Source: a virus
Taxonomy: Duplodnaviria; Heunggongvirae; Uroviricota; Caudoviricetes
DNA length: 25,729 nt
Strand: one strand, 5' to 3'
Virus record (IMG/VR): IMGVR_UViG_2585427783_000006
Coordinates: 1-25,729 of that record
Shown here: piece by piece, positions 1 to 7,165 of the stretch
Position numbering within the stretch: position 1 is the stretch's first letter
How the letters are laid out: each line of letters starts with the position of its first letter
The notes under the pieces: generated by a model
What the model saw: the letters and a program-made list of their open reading frames with translations, nothing else
Databases searched by the model: none
Told to the model about the DNA's origin: nothing
Made by a program: the position numbers and the translations under genes

Positions 1-267
1 TTACTCTGCAGGTGAAGTCGGCCACTCAATATCAGGTGCGGTTGATGTATCAACACGGTTCAGCAACACCCGATACTTCTTCCAGGCTTCCAGCAACGAG
101 TTTTCTTCCTCCGTTGCGATCTCCAGATCTACAGCATCCTGAAGTGGCGCAATATGCTCACTGAATTCCTGGATGTAGAACTGTGTGGTGACGGTCTTCC
201 AGCCATTCGGCTCCTGCTGTATCGAAGCATACCAGGCTATTTCAATATCGCTATGCTGCGGCAGCAT
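1..267 (-). CDS. Short tail fibre assembly (Tfa)-like protein or fragment, 88 aa
   Basis: The C-terminal ~50 aa ([36 protein letters not shown]...EWP) align with the C-terminus of the intact Tfa at 2522-3049; the N-terminal 35 aa are unrelated. Stop codon is at 1-3. Confidence 0.5.
20..92. repeat. 73-bp direct repeat copy A (tfa 3' end); partner at 1069-1141
   Basis: Direct comparison: 71 of 73 nt identical to 1069-1141, same orientation. Confidence 0.9.
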
Positions 268-323: not shown

Positions 324-992
324 ATGGTGAAACTAATGAAAAAAAACACACATGATGGGGCTAAAATTTACACACCACTTACCCTAAAGCTTTATGACTG
401 GTGGGTTTTGGGAGTATCAAATCGTCTTGCATGGGGATGTCCTACAAAGGAACACCTTCTTCCACACTTTCTGGAACATTTAGGTAACAACCATCTGGAT
501 ATTGGTGTTGGAACTGGGTTTTACCTTACTCACGTACCTGAGAGTAGTCTGATATCTTTAATGGATTTGAACGAAGCTAGCCTGAACGCGGCATCTACAA
601 GGGCTGGGGAATCAAAAATTAAACATAAAATTAGCCATGATGTTTTTGAACCTTATCCCGCGGCGTTACATGGTCAATTTGATTCCATTTCCATGTTTTA
701 CCTTCTTCACTGCCTGCCTGGAAATATATCTACAAAAAGCTGTGTAATACGCAATGCTGCGCAGGCCTTAACTGACGATGGAACTCTATACGGAGCCACA
801 ATTCTTGGCGATGGAGTTGTGCACAATAGCTTCGGTCAAAAACTGATGCGCATTTACAATCAGAAAGGCATCTTTTCAAACACAAAAGATTCCGAAGAAG
901 GCTTAACACATATACTCTCAGAGCATTTCGAGAATGTTAAAACCAAGGTTCAAGGTACTGTAGTAATGTTTTCCGCTTCAGGGAAAAAATAG
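324..992 (+). CDS. Class I SAM-dependent methyltransferase (moron), 222 aa; substrate unknown
   Basis: Glycine-rich motif I (LDIGVGTGFY) typical of Rossmann-fold SAM methyltransferases. The gene is AT-rich relative to flanking tail genes and sits on the opposite strand between tfa remnants. Alternative start ATG at 337. Confidence 0.65.
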   Translation: MVKLMKKNTHDGAKIYTPLTLKLYDWWVLGVSNRLAWGCPTKEHLLPHFLEHLGNNHLDIGVGTGFYLTHVPESSLISLMDLNEASLNAASTRAGESKIKHKISHDVFEPYPAALHGQFDSISMFYLLHCLPGNISTKSCVIRNAAQALTDDGTLYGATILGDGVVHNSFGQKLMRIYNQKGIFSNTKDSEEGLTHILSEHFENVKTKVQGTVVMFSASGKK

Positions 993-1046
993 CATCCAAC
1001 CGCAGCACGTTCTTGCTTAAGACGTGCTGCGGCATAATCCCAATGA

Positions 1047-1373
1047 TTACTCCCTGACAGGGTTCGTAGGCCACTCAATATCAGGTGCAGTTGATGTATC
1101 AACACGGTTCAGCAACACCCGATACTTTTTCCAGGCTTCCACCACCAGCACGACAAGATGCCGCATACAGTGACCCAGTCAGTCCAGTTTCCAGACAACT
1201 AGTGCGTCACCTTTTTGAAGGCGCTTTAAAGCACGTTTTAATCCAGGTCGGCCTGTCCTTGTTCCGCTTAATTTATCTTCAAATATTTGTTCACATCCTG
1301 CACAAACAAGAGCGTTTCGTTGCAGGTCTGTATTCTGGTCATTTGTTGATACCCTTACATAGCCAATCAGCAC
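1047..1373 (-). pseudogene. pin: Pin/Gin/Hin-family serine DNA invertase remnant: premature TGA after codon ~72, then in-frame fusion to a tfa 3' end
   Basis: The N-terminus (GTG start at 1373, LIGYVRVSTNDQNTDLQRNAL...VVWKLD) matches the invertase catalytic domain including the active-site Ser in YVRVS. TGA at 1179-1181 sits where Arg is expected. The frame continues [13 protein letters not shown] and then switches to [23 protein letters not shown] (Tfa C-terminus). The resolvase core and C-terminal HTH are absent. Confidence 0.8.
1069..1141. repeat. 73-bp direct repeat copy B (tfa 3' end fused to the pin remnant)
   Basis: 71 of 73 nt identical to 20-92. Confidence 0.9.
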
Positions 1374-1427
1374 GCTGAATCTCCCGTCCAAAAGCACAAA
1401 TCATGCCATGCAGGCCAGAAACGGCCA

Positions 1428-1453
1428 TTATCTAAAACCTCGGTTTACAGGAA
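1428..1453. other. Inversion crossover site (gix/pix-like), left
   Basis: TTATCTAAAACCTCGGTTTACAGGAA matches the remembered Gin/Pin recombination site consensus; an inverted copy lies at 3208-3233. Confidence 0.75.
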
Positions 1454-1477
1454 ACGGTAAACAGGGCCAGGAACGCC

Positions 1478-2518
1478 GTGCAAAAGAATGGCGATACCTT
1501 GTCCGGTGGGCTTACTTTTGCAAACGACTCAATCCTTGCCTGGATTAGAAATACTGACTGGGCGAAGATTGGATTTAAAAATGATGCCGACAGCGATACT
1601 GATTCATACATGTGGTTTGAAACAGGCGACAACGGCAATGAATATTTCAAATGGAGAAGCCGCCATGGCACCACAACAAAAGACCTGATGAATCTTAAAT
1701 GGGGTGCTTTGTATGTTCTTGTTAAAGCCCTTTTCGGCAGTGAAGTAAAAATATCGACAGTCAATGCACTGAGGATTTTTAATTCATCCTTTGGTGCTAT
1801 TTTTCGCCGTTCTGAAGAACACCTGCATATCATCCCTACACGAGAAAATGAGGGTGAAAATGGAGATATTGGGCCATTAAGGCCATTCAACATCAACTTA
1901 AGAACAGGAGTTGTGTCTGTTGGTAATGGTGCCAGGATTGATGGCGGGCTGGCACTTGGCACGAATAACGCGTTGGGTGGGAACTCAATTGTTCTTGGTG
2001 ATAATGATACCGGATTTAAACAGAATGGTGATGGTATTCTTGATGTTTACGCTAATAGTCAGCGAGTATTCCGCTTTCAGAATGGAGTGGCTATTGCTTT
2101 TAAAAACATTCAGGCAGGTGATAGTAAAAAATTCTCGCTATCCAGCTCCAACAACTCCACGAAGAACGTAGGGTTTAATTTATGGGGCACTTCATCAAGA
2201 CCAACTGTTGCAGAGCTTGGTGATGATTCAGGCTGGCATTTCTATAGTCAGCGAAATACAGATAACTCAGTAACATTTGCTGTTAACGGTCAGATACAGC
2301 CCAGCAACTGGGGGAATTTTGATTCCCGCTATGTGAAAGATGTTCGCCTGGGTACGCGTGTTGTTCAATTGATGGCGCGTGGTGGTCGTTATGAAAAAGC
2401 CGGACACGCAATTACCGGATTAAGAATCATTGGTGAAGTAGATGGCGATGATGAAGCCATCTTCAGGCCAATACAAAAATACATCAATGGCACATGGTAT
2501 AACGTCGTACAGGTGTAA
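1478..2518 (+). CDS. stf: Side tail fibre variable C-terminal cassette (Sv'), promoterless; coding continues upstream to the crossover site
   Basis: QKNGDTLSGGLTFANDSILAWIRNTDWAKIGFKNDAD...GTWYNVVQV matches the C-terminal receptor-binding part of lambda Stf. It lies immediately after the left crossover site and inside the invertible segment. Confidence 0.8.
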   Translation: MQKNGDTLSGGLTFANDSILAWIRNTDWAKIGFKNDADSDTDSYMWFETGDNGNEYFKWRSRHGTTTKDLMNLKWGALYVLVKALFGSEVKISTVNALRIFNSSFGAIFRRSEEHLHIIPTRENEGENGDIGPLRPFNINLRTGVVSVGNGARIDGGLALGTNNALGGNSIVLGDNDTGFKQNGDGILDVYANSQRVFRFQNGVAIAFKNIQAGDSKKFSLSSSNNSTKNVGFNLWGTSSRPTVAELGDDSGWHFYSQRNTDNSVTFAVNGQIQPSNWGNFDSRYVKDVRLGTRVVQLMARGGRYEKAGHAITGLRIIGEVDGDDEAIFRPIQKYINGTWYNVVQV

Positions 2519-2521
2519 TTT

Positions 2522-3049
2522 ATGCAGCATTTAAAAAATATTAAGTCTGGAAATCCAAAAACAAAAGAACAATATCAGCTAACAAAGAATTTTGATGTTA
2601 TCTGGTTATATACAGAAGACGGTAAAAACTGGTATGAGGAAGTGAAAAACTTTCAGCCAGACACAATAAAGATTGTTTACGATGCAAATAATATTATTGT
2701 CGCCATCACCAAAGATGCCTCCACGCTTAACCCTGAAGGTTATAGCGTCGTTGAGGTTCCAGATATTACAGCCAACCGCCGCGCTGATGATTCCGGTAAG
2801 TGGATGTTTAGGGACGGAGCTGTGGTTAAACGGATTTATACGGCAGACGAGCAACAACAACAGGCCGAATCACAAAAGGCCGCATTGCTTTCCGAAGCTG
2901 AATCAGTCATCCAACCGCTGGAACGCGCTGTCAGGCTGAATATGGCAACAGACGAGGAACGCACACGACTGGAAGCATGGGAACGCTACAGTGTTCTGGT
3001 CAGCCGTGTGGATACGGCAAATCCTGAATGGCCACAAAAACCAGAGTAA
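2522..3049 (+). CDS. tfa: Tail fibre assembly protein Tfa, 175 aa
   Basis: Directly follows the Sv' cassette; Tfa-like C-terminus ([32 protein letters not shown]). Confidence 0.8.
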
Positions 3050-5037
3050 AAATTAAGGCCCGATGTCCAGACCTGACTATCGCCACCAATATTCAGCCAT
3101 GAGCTATATGCGCGGCAGGCACCAATATTTTTGGTGAAGGTATCTTTTCCTGGAATATCTGCGCCGTTCTGGTTTTTCTGTAATGCGCCAGAAGCCTGAC
3201 TTACCGTTTCCTGTAAACCGAGGTATTCGATAACAGCGGCAACGGTCGATTTCGCAAGAATATCCCGCCCGACTTTTGTCAGGGTTGCCAGGCTGGCGAC
3301 ATCATTCCCCGTAAAATACGGAAACCTGTCTGCCGCAGTAGCAAGCCCGGCCAGCGCCGTCAGGGTGGCATCTTTCGGTTGCTTACCCGCAAGCGCGTTA
3401 GTCATGGTGGTCGCAAAATTCGGGTCGTTTCCCAGCGCCGCCGCCAGCTCGTTCAGCGTATTCAGTGCGTCAGGCGACGAGTCTACAAGTGCGGCAATCG
3501 CGGCCATCACATAAGCCGTGCTTGCGATCTGAGTATTATTAGTCCCTTTTGGCGCAGTTGGCGTTGTTGGCGTTCCGGTCAGCGCAGGACTGTTTAAAGG
3601 CGCTTTCTTGTTCGTTTCATCCATTACCGCCTTAACCGCTTTTGGTGTCGCAGCCAGCGTTTCAGACGGGCTGTTAGTGGCGCTACTGAGCTGAACTATC
3701 CCTTTTCGTGCCGTCGTTGCATCCTGAGCGGTATATTTTGCGTTAGCAAGGTCATATGCTGCCTTTACTGCCTTTGGTGTTGCCGCCAGTGACTCGGAAG
3801 TGCTGTTGGTCGCACTGCTGAGCTGAACCACACCTTTTTTCGTCGTGCTCGCATCTTCCAGAGATACGGCATCAGCAATATCCTCTGCCCGTTTTGCTGC
3901 TGTTTCGGCACGCGTTGCCGCGGATTCAGCAGCAACTTTGCTCTGAGATGCAGCCGTCGCACTGCCTGCCGCCTCTGATGCTTTCGTTGTTGCTGTCGTG
4001 GCACTACCTTTCGCTGCTGACGCTTGTCTGGTCGCCTCATCTTTTGAAGCAGACGCAGATGATGCCGATGACGCCGCTGAACCAGCGGACGATGCGGCTG
4101 CCGCCTTAGAGGAAGCAGCATTGTCTGCTGAAGTCTTTGCATTTGTTTCAGAGGTTTTTGCTGCAGAAGCAGACCTCGCTGCTGCAGTGGCTTGCTTAGT
4201 GGCTTCGCCAGCCTTCGTTGTGGCTGTTGAAGCGGATGATGCGGCGCTTTCTGCCGATTTTCCGGCGGCGGTGGCACTGGCTGAGGCCTGCCCGGCACTT
4301 GTTGACGCGGCACTGGCCGACGATGCAGCCGCTGTTTTTGAACCTGCCGCAGCTGAGGCACTCTGTGCTGCTGCCGTTTCAGAAGACTTAGCGTTTGTCT
4401 CAGACGTCTTTGCCGCCTTCGCGGAATTTCCTGCCGCCGTTGCCGAGGAAGCTGCACTACTGGCACTTGATGATGCATTCGTTTCTGATGATTTCGCTGC
4501 CTCTTTTGAGGCCGCCGCCCCCCGTGCCGAGGTGGCAGCTTCTGACGCCTTCGTGGTCGCTGTGGATGCAGAAGTGGCTGCCGATTTTTGTGATGCTGCG
4601 GCATTCGTTTCTGACGTTTTCGCGGCACTGGCGCTGGTAGCTGCCGCGCTTTTTGATGACTCTGCAGCAGCAGCACTTTTCGCTGCTTCACTGGCCTTTG
4701 TCGATGCCGTTCCTGCGCTGGAAGACGCTGACTGAGCCGACGACGCGGCCTGTCCGGCTGACGTGCTGGCTGCGCGTGCTGAGCCTGCAGCATCAGTCGC
4801 ATGGGTTGCCGCCTCACGGGCTGATGTGCTGGCATCACTGGCTGACTTCTTCGCGGCTGCCGTGTTCTGTGCCACTGCGGACGCGTTACGCGCCACCTCT
4901 TCCACCATCAGTTCAAAACGGCGCAGTGCCTCCGGACGGGCATCATCCTCCGTCATGGCACCGAGAAAATCATTCAGCGTACCGGGTCGGGAATCTTCAT
5001 ACACGGTGATGGTCCCGGCATGTGACGGCGGGAATCC
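2986..5037 (-). pseudogene. stf: Side tail fibre Stf constant region, N-terminally truncated by the J-stf deletion and currently joined to a non-homologous C-terminal stub
   Basis: GFPPSHAGTITVYEDS...long Ala/Ser-rich repeats...AVIEYLGLQETV matches lambda Stf from about residue 60 to the crossover point. After the crossover the frame reads antisense through the tfa 3' end. Confidence 0.8.
3208..3233. other. Inversion crossover site (gix/pix-like), right, inside the stf reading frame
   Basis: TTCCTGTAAACCGAGGTATTCGATAA is the inverted partner of 1428-1453 (16 bp identical in one half-site). It encodes ...IEYLGLQE... at the constant/variable junction of the tail fibre. Confidence 0.75.
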
Positions 5038-7165
5038 GGAACGATACCGACGCCGGATCGCCCTGCTGTCCCCATGCATTTACTGCCCGGACTGTCAGCC
5101 TGTAGTTCCCCAGAGCCAGTTGTGTGAAGCGGTAAGTGGTTTCCGTCGTCCGGGCCGTGCTGACCAGCCGCTCACTGCCGTCATCCGCTGCCACGGTCAG
5201 GCGAAGCATAAAGCTCACCCCCTTCACCACCTTCGGCGTGTCCCAGCGGGCCAGCACCTGGTATTCCCCGCTGTCTGCGGTGACTTCGGCGGTCAGATGC
5301 TGCACTGCTGGCGGCGTGACACCATTCACCGTGCCGCTCTGGTTACCGTCAAAGTGCGCCCCGTTATCCACGATGGCTTCTTTCTCCGGTACATGCTGCA
5401 CTGCAGTGATGGCATACGTACCGTCGTCGTTCTCACGGATACTCACACAGCGGAACAGGCGCTGGCGCAGCGTCGGCAGCTTCAGCCCCCACACGCTGTA
5501 CTCGGCAACGCCGTCAGGAACCCGGCTCACTTTCACCTTCACGCCGTCGGTGATGGACTGGACCTCCACGCTGACCGGATTGCCACTTCCGTCAACCAGG
5601 CTTATCAGCGTGGTGCCGGAGGATGGCAGCGTGATTTCACGGTCGAGCGTCAGCGTCCGGGTCTGGCTGTTCACCGCCAGCACGCGCCCGCCGGTGCTGA
5701 TACCGGCATAGTCATCATCGCAGATTTCAATGACATCGCCCGGTACATGGCGAAGCCCTTCGGCACCCACGCTGAAGTCCACGGTCTGCGTCTCCAGCAG
5801 TTCTGTTTTAATCAGCCACAGCCCGGCGCGGTGTGCCTGCCCCCGGCTGGTACAGCCAAAAGCATCCATCTTCGTGACGTTACGGCCGTAACGGGCAATG
5901 GCCTGCGTGTCCTCCACAAGCTCTGTCGCCGTCTCCCAGCCGTTGTTCGGGTCAATCCAGTTCACCTCAACGGCATTATGGCGGTCCTTCAGGGCGCTGA
6001 AGCTGTAGCGGAACGGCGCGCCATCATCCGGCATCACCACATTACTGCGGTTATAGGTCCACACCTTATCTGATGGTCGGTCCTGCACGAACGTCAGCGT
6101 CTGCCCGTTCCATACCGGCATACAGCGCATCGCCGAGCAGAAATCACTGAGCACATCCCACGCCTTGCGCTGTGTGGTCAGGTACGCATTACAGGTGATG
6201 CGCGGCTCCGTGCCGCCAAAGCCGTCCGGCACTGACTGGTCGCAGTACTGGCCGATAACATACAACGCCCATTTATCCACATCCGCCGCACCAAGACGTT
6301 TCCCCATGCCGTAGCGCGGATGGGTCAGCATATCCCACAGACACCAGGCCATGTTGTTGCTGTATGCCGGTTTAAACGTTCCGTCCCAGATACCGCTGTA
6401 TTGCCGCGTCTGCGGGTTATAATTCGACGGCACCTGCAGAATACGCCCGCGCAGATGATAATTACGGCTCACCTGCTGGCTGCCGAACTGCTCCGAGTCC
6501 ACCTGCACGCCGACCAGTACCGTGTTCGGGTAGCACTGTTTCACATCGATAATTTCGGTGTATGACGACCAGAGCGTTTTGTTCTGCAGCTGGTCTGTGG
6601 TGCTGTCCGGCGTCATCCTGCGCATCCGGATACTGAACGGGCGCGGCGGCAGGTTATCCACCACCACCGAGGCCAGATACTGTGAAGTGGTTTTACCCTT
6701 AATGGTGATGTCTTTTTCCGTCACCCAGCCACCGTTACGCTGGATCTGAACCAGCAGGCGGACTTCCGACGGATTCCTGTCCCCCTTTGAGGTGGTTTCC
6801 ACCAGTGCCTGCACGCCGAAGGTAAAACGCAGTCGGTCAATGTTTGCCGACGTGATGGTCCGGGTGATCGGCGTGTCGTATTTCACTTCCGTACCCAGCA
6901 CCGTCTCGGAGCCGGAGGATTCAAATCCCTCCGGCGGTGTCTGCTCCTGCTCACCGGCCCGGAACACCACCGTGACGCCGGATATATTGGTATTCCCCTC
7001 ACTGTCCAGCACCGGCGTACTGTTCAGCAGCACGCTTTTTAATCCATCCACCGGACCTTCAACCGGCCCTTCGCTGATAGCATCGATCACACTCAGCAGC
7101 TGCGTGGACTTCAGGTTGTCCTTCGCTTCGCGCGGGGTATGCCCCTTACTGCTGCCTTTACCCAT
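4997..7165 (-). pseudogene. J: Host specificity protein J, truncated after about residue 716; C-terminal receptor-binding region deleted
   Basis: MGKGSSKGHTPREAKDNLKSTQLLSVIDAISEGP... is near-identical to lambda J through ...ASVSFRI, then 11 unrelated codons and a stop. Full J is remembered as about 1130 aa. Confidence 0.85.

Follow-up and report, generated by a model that had tools for sequence, protein, structure and literature searches.

The closest described systems are the Gin invertase of phage Mu with its G segment and the PinE invertase of the K-12 e14 element with its P segment. Both enzymes belong to the Din subfamily (Gin/Pin/Hin/Cin) of serine DNA invertases. A complete invertase of this subfamily has about 185–195 amino acids, and in gin and hin a Fis-dependent recombinational enhancer lies within the 5' ~230 nt of the gene. 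The Mu G-segment architecture, which comprises the constant part of stf, an invertible segment carrying a pair of alternative fibre ends and a pair of tfa-type genes, and the invertase, is matched by the locus described here, and the locus shares with e14 PinE both the Din invertase family and an association with tail-fibre switching. The window, that is, the whole stretch of 25,729 nt that was analysed, comes from a Caudoviricetes record (IMGVR_UViG_2585427783_000006) and carries near its left end an invertase gene that stops prematurely and is fused to part of a tail fibre assembly (tfa) gene.

The position of this fusion brings in a second body of work. Starting at a double-strand end, RecBCD degrades DNA up to a Chi that it approaches from the 3' side of the octamer. 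The cut that follows lies 4–6 nt to the 3' side of Chi, or the final cut falls at Chi itself, and the 3' strand bearing Chi is spared (PMC5041463; PMC3375238). A favourable 3' flank has A or G at nt 4–7 after the octamer (PMC5041463). Chi protects linear DNA, and illegitimate joints formed in E. coli by homology-facilitated illegitimate recombination (HFIR) show 0–1 nt of homology (PMC3240628).

Results

A truncated Din-type invertase

The invertase sequence occupies the minus strand and comprises the following features:

1179–1373, minus strand: 5' remnant of a gin/pin-type serine DNA invertase, with a GTG start at 1373, 64 codons and then TGA
1179–1181, minus strand: premature TGA in place of Arg65 of the DRLGR motif (CGA, CGG or CGC in intact homologues)
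1142–1178, minus strand: patch of e14-pin type that ends at the junction and carries three more substitutions (GGT, CAC and TGT)

From the GTG at 1373, the frame reads VLIGYVRVSTNDQNTDLQRNALVCAGCEQIFEDKLSGTRTGRPGLKRALKRLQKGDALVVWKLD up to the TGA (1181 to 1179), beyond which it stays open to a TAA (1049 to 1047). Residues 1–65 give a Pfam match to the Resolvase N-terminal domain (PF00239; E=1.2e-18; profile positions 2–73 of 145), and the motif of the nucleophilic serine (YVRVST) is kept as GYVRVSTNDQ. At the DNA level, the 5' part of the remnant shows 93–96% identity to P2-like invertases and to the gin genes of Mu, D108 and SfMu. The same stretch is labelled a recombinase family protein in the RefSeq annotation of strain E8, and the NCBI pipeline already annotates the truncated invertase as two partial genes.

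Lesions were mapped against intact K-12 pinE, a second e14-type pin and the gin-like gene of a P2-like prophage (alignment A1). Both catalytic arginines of the DRLGR motif are lost, Arg65 to TGA and Arg68 to His (CAC), while all intact homologues have Arg at both positions. The serine that follows the second arginine is Cys, which turns G-R-S into G-H-C. The match to intact invertases stops at nt 232 (residue 77), and a search downstream of the joint for the rest of the gene found none of it, so that the long dimerisation helix and the C-terminal helix-turn-helix DNA-binding domain are missing. The gene stretch equivalent to the enhancer-bearing 5' ~230 nt is still present. On its sequence, the remnant is a non-functional member of the Din invertase subfamily, which cannot work because it lacks Arg65, Arg68, everything after residue 77 and the DNA-binding domain.

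The original prediction, whose coordinates and peptides agree with a direct reading of the minus strand, had described an invertase gene killed twice, by a TGA where Arg is expected and by truncation with fusion to tfa. The TGA does lie in frame at the codon that specifies Arg65 in intact homologues (CGA, CGG or CGC), and both the nonsense codon and the truncation/fusion stand; "twice" understates the damage, since Arg68 to His and Ser to Cys come besides.

The joint between pin and tfa

The point at which invertase sequence gives way to tfa sequence is defined by three features:

1141/1142, minus strand: illegitimate joint, pin ...GCTGGTGG / TGGAAGCCTGG... tfa, from alignment with intact pin and intact tfa (alignment A2)
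1142–1149, minus strand (read from 1149 to 1142): exact Chi octamer, 5'-GCTGGTGG-3', at pin nt 225–232
1047–1141, minus strand: 3' end of a tail fibre assembly gene (31 codons and TAA; PF02413), fused in frame

In alignment A2, the pin side reads ...CATCTTGTCGTGCTGGTGG and then A[A/G]GAGTTGCGC, the tfa side reads ...ACCTCATTGC and then TGGAAGCCTGGAAAAAG, and the window across the joint reads ...CATCTTGTCGTGCTGGTGG/TGGAAGCCTGGAAAAAG. The breakpoint is thereby placed to the base, with the last pin-derived base at 1142 and the first tfa-derived base at 1141. The fused tfa piece is identical across the aligned stretch to the intact tfa 3' end of strains DA33137 and WP7-S18-ESBL-09; it matches Caudo_TAP (PF02413) at profile positions 104–130 of 131 (E=5e-13), and the full-length chaperone domain is absent. 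The predicted in-frame switch from invertase to the Tfa C-terminus is thus borne out by the alignments with both parents.

No base at the joint is common to pin and tfa in register, although TGG occurs on both sides. The true junction string is GCTGGTGG/TGGAAGCC. It had earlier been quoted as GTCGTGCTGGTGGAAGCC, which is 3 nt short; the actual sequence is GTCGTGCTGGTGGTGGAAGCC, giving LVVLVVEAW and not LVVLVEAW. The three omitted bases matter, because the quoted string would be a clean crossover in the microhomology TGGAAG and the real joint is not. Better microhomologies between pin and tfa, namely TGCTGG or, in one allele, TGGAAG, went unused; crossovers within them would have given GTGCTGGAAGCC or GCTGGTGGAAGCC. 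We also considered a microhomology crossover followed by triplet expansion and rejected it: a synthetic joint without the extra TGG (GCTGGTGGAAGCC) is matched exactly in none of 5,426 complete E. coli genomes, where all full-length matches to it show a 3-nt gap. Any intact tfa allele reading ...GCTGGTGGTGGAAGCC... would turn the joint into a homologous crossover.

Chi at the joint

The original prediction had also set the deletion endpoint at Chi, and pin-derived DNA does end exactly on the last base of the octamer, the final G at 1142 (plus-strand reading at 1142–1149, CCACCAGC). The octamer is native to this codon position in e14-type pin: in K-12 pinE and its relatives, nt 223–234 specify Val-Leu-Val-Glu by GTG CTG GTG GAG, which places Chi at nt 225–232. 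Among 81 further intact invertases, fetched by a conserved 5' motif, none has the octamer at nt 225–232; their alleles read CTGATAGA, CTCGTCGG, CTGGTTGA and others in its place. As judged by the alleles compared, Chi predates the join and is native to e14-type pin only, being absent from the other pin/gin allele groups. Many e14-type alleles (for example, those at loci L032 and L069) carry a second co-oriented Chi at nt 171–178, 54 nt upstream (ACG CTG GTG GTC), and none of the sampled pin loci showed a truncation ending there.

The window contains 12 Chi octamers (eight on the minus strand), where dinucleotide shuffles lead one to expect 0.95. With Chi so frequent, the presence of one somewhere near is unremarkable, and it is the exact ending at the junction that is unusual. 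A high Chi density is typical of E. coli-adapted DNA, yet it is notable for prophage structural genes. On the Chi strand, the pin DNA that was kept lies 5' of the octamer and the pin DNA that was lost lay 3' of it, which is the orientation met by a RecBCD enzyme degrading from the lost side. In intact e14-type pin the ancestral 3' flank is AGGAGTTG or AAGAGTTG, with purines at positions 4–5 and the disfavoured T at positions 6–7.

Mosaic structure of the invertase sequence

Two allele types meet within the remnant. Its first ~218 nt are ~95% identical to gin-type genes (Mu, D108, SfMu and P2-like prophages), with an identity to pinE of only ~75% over the first ~200 nt, whereas the last 25 nt before the joint agree in every base with K-12 pinE and with the pin gene of locus L005 and differ from the gin/P2-type allele. 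An intact parent allele with a gin-type 5' part and an e14-type remainder was sought in the E. coli collection with a chimeric query, which returned only ordinary pinE at 89%. A mosaic invertase for which no intact parent of the same structure was found implies a history of more than one step.

Four substitutions fall within 13 nt of the minus strand (window 1167–1181): CGA to TGA, GGG to GGT, CGC to CAC and AGT to TGT. They occur in neither parental allele type and lie 25–40 nt inside the joint; such a cluster could represent the scars of break-associated error-prone or repair synthesis.

Cassette boundaries and resident module

Comparison with a potB prophage that has no cassette explains the wider setting. 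This relative matches the window at 1–1144 (97.8%) and at 3764–5037 (93.8%, inside stf), and nothing matches between. As only the two flanks match, the cassette has taken the place of most of tfa and of the distal half of stf. By its layout, the locus sits at the right-hand margin of an invertible tail-fibre cassette of the Mu-G/e14-P kind, carried by a lambdoid prophage beside potB. Besides the invertase, the cassette is made up of variable fibre ends, two tfa genes and inverted crossover sites of 33 bp.

The module that received the cassette reads stf, tfa, a small ORF, a SAM methyltransferase on the opposite strand and a tfa remnant ('tfaX). Its parts at the left end of the window are:

324–992, plus strand: ybcY-like class I SAM-dependent methyltransferase with Pfam methyltransferase domains, cargo of the resident module
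1–267, minus strand: tfaX-like tfa 3' remnant beside the prophage/potB boundary, bases 17–95 of which repeat 1066–1144

Without an invertase, the same module adjoins potB in strains DA33137 and WP7-S18-ESBL-09, and it is found in decayed form as tfaD'-ybcY'-tfaX' in K-12 DLP12. The direct repeat (17–95 and 1066–1144, 95% identical) consists of tfa 3' ends that flank the methyltransferase at 324–992, the layout also seen in tfaD'-ybcY'-tfaX' of DLP12. This conserved 3' end of tfa seems to act as a recombination linker through which cargo is exchanged.

The two boundaries of the cassette differ in kind: the left one lies in homologous stf (93.8% from 3764), and the right one is abrupt and without homology (pin nt 232 against tfa). 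We infer that this is the boundary layout of HFIR. The earlier description of the joint as a deletion endpoint therefore needs revision; the endpoint at Chi stands, yet it is where a grafted cassette ends illegitimately, with homology at the opposite end, and not the edge of a local deletion.

Distribution of the fusion

The fusion is present with an identical joint in 531–585 of 5,426 complete E. coli genomes, about a tenth, and in many IMG/VR contigs, again always identical; the joint is absent from all 50,697 isolated-phage records. Three or more chromosomal sites carry it (potB, trpA/ompW and ybhB/bioA), and at least four different sequences follow the tfa stop, several downstream contexts being expected if the conserved tfa 3' end works as a recombination linker. 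Among 31 sampled copies, 30 have the TGA and one has TGG, and His-Cys is present in all. Some copies also show an IS insertion or further stops, TGG to TGA in the pin part and TGG to TAG in the tfa part. The copy at locus L018 holds an insertion-element end (TGAACCGCCCCGGG...) within its tfa remnant, which we take, from its terminal repeats, to be of the IS3 family.

A single old event is shown by the recurrence of one joint and one set of lesions in about a tenth of E. coli genomes, in several downstream contexts and at several sites. Window 1000–1480 (481 bases) is 100% identical in the independent assembly of strain E8, and window 1142–1400 (259 bases) is so in eleven assemblies. The suspicion that the TGA might be a sequencing error is refuted by these identical assemblies and by the 30 of 31 copies, which show it to be both real and old. 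The TGA, the other substitutions and the truncation are shared by essentially every copy, which gives no order of events.

Crossover sites and segment orientation

Upstream of the remnant lies the segment on which an invertase of this family would act:

1428–1460, unstranded: gix/pix-like crossover site at the right (minus strand, TTCCTGTAAACCGAGGTTTTAGATAA), a short distance upstream of the invertase
3201–3233, unstranded: left crossover site, in stf at the boundary of its constant and variable parts, from an inverted-repeat search
1461–3200, unstranded: invertible tail-fibre segment, with an alternative fibre C-terminus (1478–2518, plus strand) and its tfa (2522–3049, plus strand)
2986–5079, minus strand: stf tail-fibre gene, the truncated variable part of which reads into antisense tfa

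A search with the core AAACC-NN-GGTTT matched only the site at 1428, and the repeat search supplied its partner at 3201–3233; the two are 33-nt inverted repeats with 94% complementarity. Strain 504838 (locus L236, 2076–5231) carries the same potB prophage with the identical dead invertase and the segment in the opposite orientation, with flanks that are 99.9–100% identical and inversion endpoints inside the 33-bp repeats. As all copies descend from a single fusion event, the segment must have flipped after the invertase had been truncated.

Invertases that act on the segments of other prophages have been described, namely PinQ, PinR, PinE and Fin (PMC12529663). Because carrier chromosomes hold 1–6 pin-like loci and such cross-prophage inversion is documented, the segment probably still flips, most likely in trans by means of invertases encoded elsewhere in the genome. 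The flip could also have come about by exchange with a relative in the other orientation, with no trans-acting invertase.

The switch is further damaged in this window. A window-specific deletion of 1,350 bp at 3064 (relative to locus L001, 3067–4416), whose ends show no evident microhomology and no Chi, removed one variable fibre end and its tfa, and stf consequently now runs into the antisense of the other tfa; a complete fibre gene would be restorable only by the other orientation of the segment. A second deletion, of ~2.27 kb at ~5028–5038 (relative to L236, 7036–9304), fused the J region to the 5' end of stf with loss of lom; it has a 6-bp microhomology (AATCCG) and no Chi at its ends.

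Origin of the joint

How did pin come to end on the last base of Chi? The original prediction had invoked a RecBCD-stimulated illegitimate event. In a form that accommodates the cassette boundaries, a linear donor fragment would have recombined illegitimately with homology at one end. RecBCD would have entered the donor's right end and degraded it up to the correctly oriented Chi native to e14-type pin, so that the surviving 3' end was set at Chi. This end would then have been joined into tfa without homology, and the in-frame outcome would be due to chance. The orientation of Chi and the exactness of the endpoint are consistent with such a course, as is one independent replicate, described below, whereas nine truncations of pin at other positions and the two Chi-free deletions in the window speak against attaching too much weight to it. 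RecBCD/Chi causation of the joint is thus plausible and specific, but circumstantial, resting on two coincident endpoints, and unproven.

The replicate was found by scanning IMG/VR with a 19-mer that ends in this Chi. Its matches comprise intact genes, the joint of the window's type and a second truncation, in which an e14-type pin (95% identical to pinE) is cut immediately after GCTGGTGGA, that is, at Chi+1. The retained side is again 5' of Chi. This truncation belongs to a different defective prophage and is carried by three IMG/VR contigs and 12 E. coli genomes (loci L032, L039, L139 and L131, the last from strain H1827/12, locus 6837–7073). Its partner is unrelated AT-rich cargo DNA encoding hypothetical proteins, of which an unfused form was sought and not found. 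Scans of IMG/VR for more joints at the Chi edge (Chi followed by C or G; by T and then not G; by A and then C or T) returned only this known second type, and a scan of species-representative genomes for Chi-edge joints gave nothing new.

Nine other independent pin truncations, from a 5'-motif-anchored set pooled with loci fetched earlier, end at about nt 49, 110, 118, 128, 146, 201, 267, 293 and 470. The window's own joint was treated as hypothesis-generating and left out of the probability calculation, which considers the ten other events: the probability that at least one of them falls 0–1 nt from the Chi edge is about 4%, and about 13% if the range is widened to 0–6 nt. Support from the replicate for Chi causation is therefore suggestive (p≈0.04–0.13). 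The two joints lie at Chi+0 and Chi+1 and not at the +4 to +6 nick positions seen in vitro, for which reason trimming must be assumed.

The strongest alternative is an ordinary illegitimate joint, made by random break-and-join or by template switching, whose position at Chi is coincidental; we regard it as a serious contender that falls somewhat short of an even chance. The join may have been aided by TGG/CTGG repeats common to pin (GTGCTGGTGG) and tfa (TTGCTGGAAG), and Chi would be present only because common E. coli Leu-Val codons (CTG GTG) spell the octamer. Much agrees with this reading: Chi is very frequent (12 in 25.7 kb), pin is truncated at many positions, the other deletions in the window formed without Chi, TGG stands on either side of the joint, and the finding was picked post hoc for its motif. 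In addition, the locus L232 (minus strand, pin start at 4656 of the reverse complement) holds an unrelated pin::tfa fusion, of pin nt ~105 to a different tfa. That fusion is out of frame, has CAG microhomology and formed without Chi; joins of invertase to tfa are thus recurrent. Coincidence accounts less readily for an endpoint that is exact to the base with Chi in the productive orientation, for the second independent truncation at Chi+1, and for the neglect of the best microhomologies (TGCTGG and TGGAAG), the product of the latter (GCTGGTGGAAGCC) being absent from 5,426 genomes.

It is very improbable that the joint was instead selected for an expressed product, either a 39-aa protein with a Tfa C-terminus that starts at an internal ATG at 1166 or an original Pin(1–77)-Tfa hybrid. 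In favour of such a product, the reading frame continues across the fusion, the C-terminus of Caudo_TAP is matched by the 39-aa ORF, and the joint is kept in hundreds of genomes. However, chance puts one join in three in frame, extra stops or an IS insertion interrupt the fragment in many copies, and an intact-looking tfa nearby makes a 31-residue tail redundant. More improbable still is truncation by the invertase itself or a relative acting site-specifically at a secondary crossover site inside pin. Din-family invertases do occasionally use pseudo-sites, and the gene adjoins a crossover site, but neither side of the joint resembles the AAACC-NN-GGTTT core, and invertase-mediated deletion was rejected since a core search and alignment A2 revealed no gix-like core there. 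An assembly or sequencing artefact, with an unreal TGA or joint, deserves practically no credence, as the identical sequence occurs in many independent complete assemblies and in IMG/VR contigs.

Returning to the RecBCD reading, we consider the account as a whole about evenly poised between right and wrong: a dead invertase at a cassette graft, made in one old event with an end limited by Chi and RecBCD, next to a segment now inverted in trans.

Discussion

Most of what the locus displays is ordinary prophage decay; it may in addition mark where RecBCD stopped degrading incoming DNA. It offers a checkable natural case, with one replicate, of an illegitimate junction at the base where RecBCD would stop. 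The origin of the boundaries in phage mosaics is debated, and oriented Chi at junction edges can be defined as a test across the pangenome.

A broader proposal, which we advance tentatively and think rather doubtful, is that illegitimate joints in E. coli prophages arise repeatedly from RecBCD ends arrested at Chi. If it holds, the end pasted in when incoming or broken DNA meets no homologue would be the survivor of degradation, set by the first correctly oriented Chi; Chi octamers would mark a class of mosaic and pseudogene boundaries, of which nature's first known cases would be the two independent pin truncations, at Chi+0 and Chi+1.

The opposite orientation of the segment in strain 504838 carries a separate message. 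An invertible tail-fibre switch can outlive its own recombinase, apparently by means of the invertases of other prophages, which bears on the prediction of phase-variable host range and of phage-defence phenotypes from genome sequence.

Relation to known systems

The Mu Gin/G-segment system (with D108, SfMu and P2-like elements such as P88) is closest in the first ~215 nt of the invertase and in the crossover site, which are 93–96% identical. Unlike Gin, the window's invertase stops at residue 64, is truncated at 77 and has no DNA-binding domain; its last ~37 nt before the joint are of e14-pin type, and the element that hosts it is a lambdoid prophage and not Mu. With PinE and the P segment of K-12 e14, the locus shares the 25 nt up to the joint without a difference, including Chi at pinE nt 225–232. 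In contrast, pinE is intact in K-12, and the window gene is ~75% identical to it over the first 200 nt.

The module to the right of the joint resembles, at 97–98% identity, tfaD'-ybcY'-tfaX' of K-12 DLP12 and the potB prophages without a cassette. Those elements have a complete or 5'-truncated tfa and no invertase, whereas in the window tfa is cut at the 31st codon from its end and joined to pin. Parallels to HFIR and to RecBCD/Chi end protection in E. coli (PMC3240628; PMC5041463) are one homologous and one illegitimate boundary, a homology-free joint and a correctly oriented Chi at the retained donor end; in contrast to those experiments, the process is here inferred from a natural product, and the joint lies at Chi+0 and not at +4 to +6. 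Finally, pinH and other decayed pin pseudogenes of E. coli are likewise truncated serine-invertase remnants in defective prophages, although they break at other positions, and a pinH-like fragment in strain GF3-3 spans pinE nt 124–270 and does not end at Chi. The locus adds one more case to a familiar class of object, the decayed prophage invertase situated at a mosaic joint.
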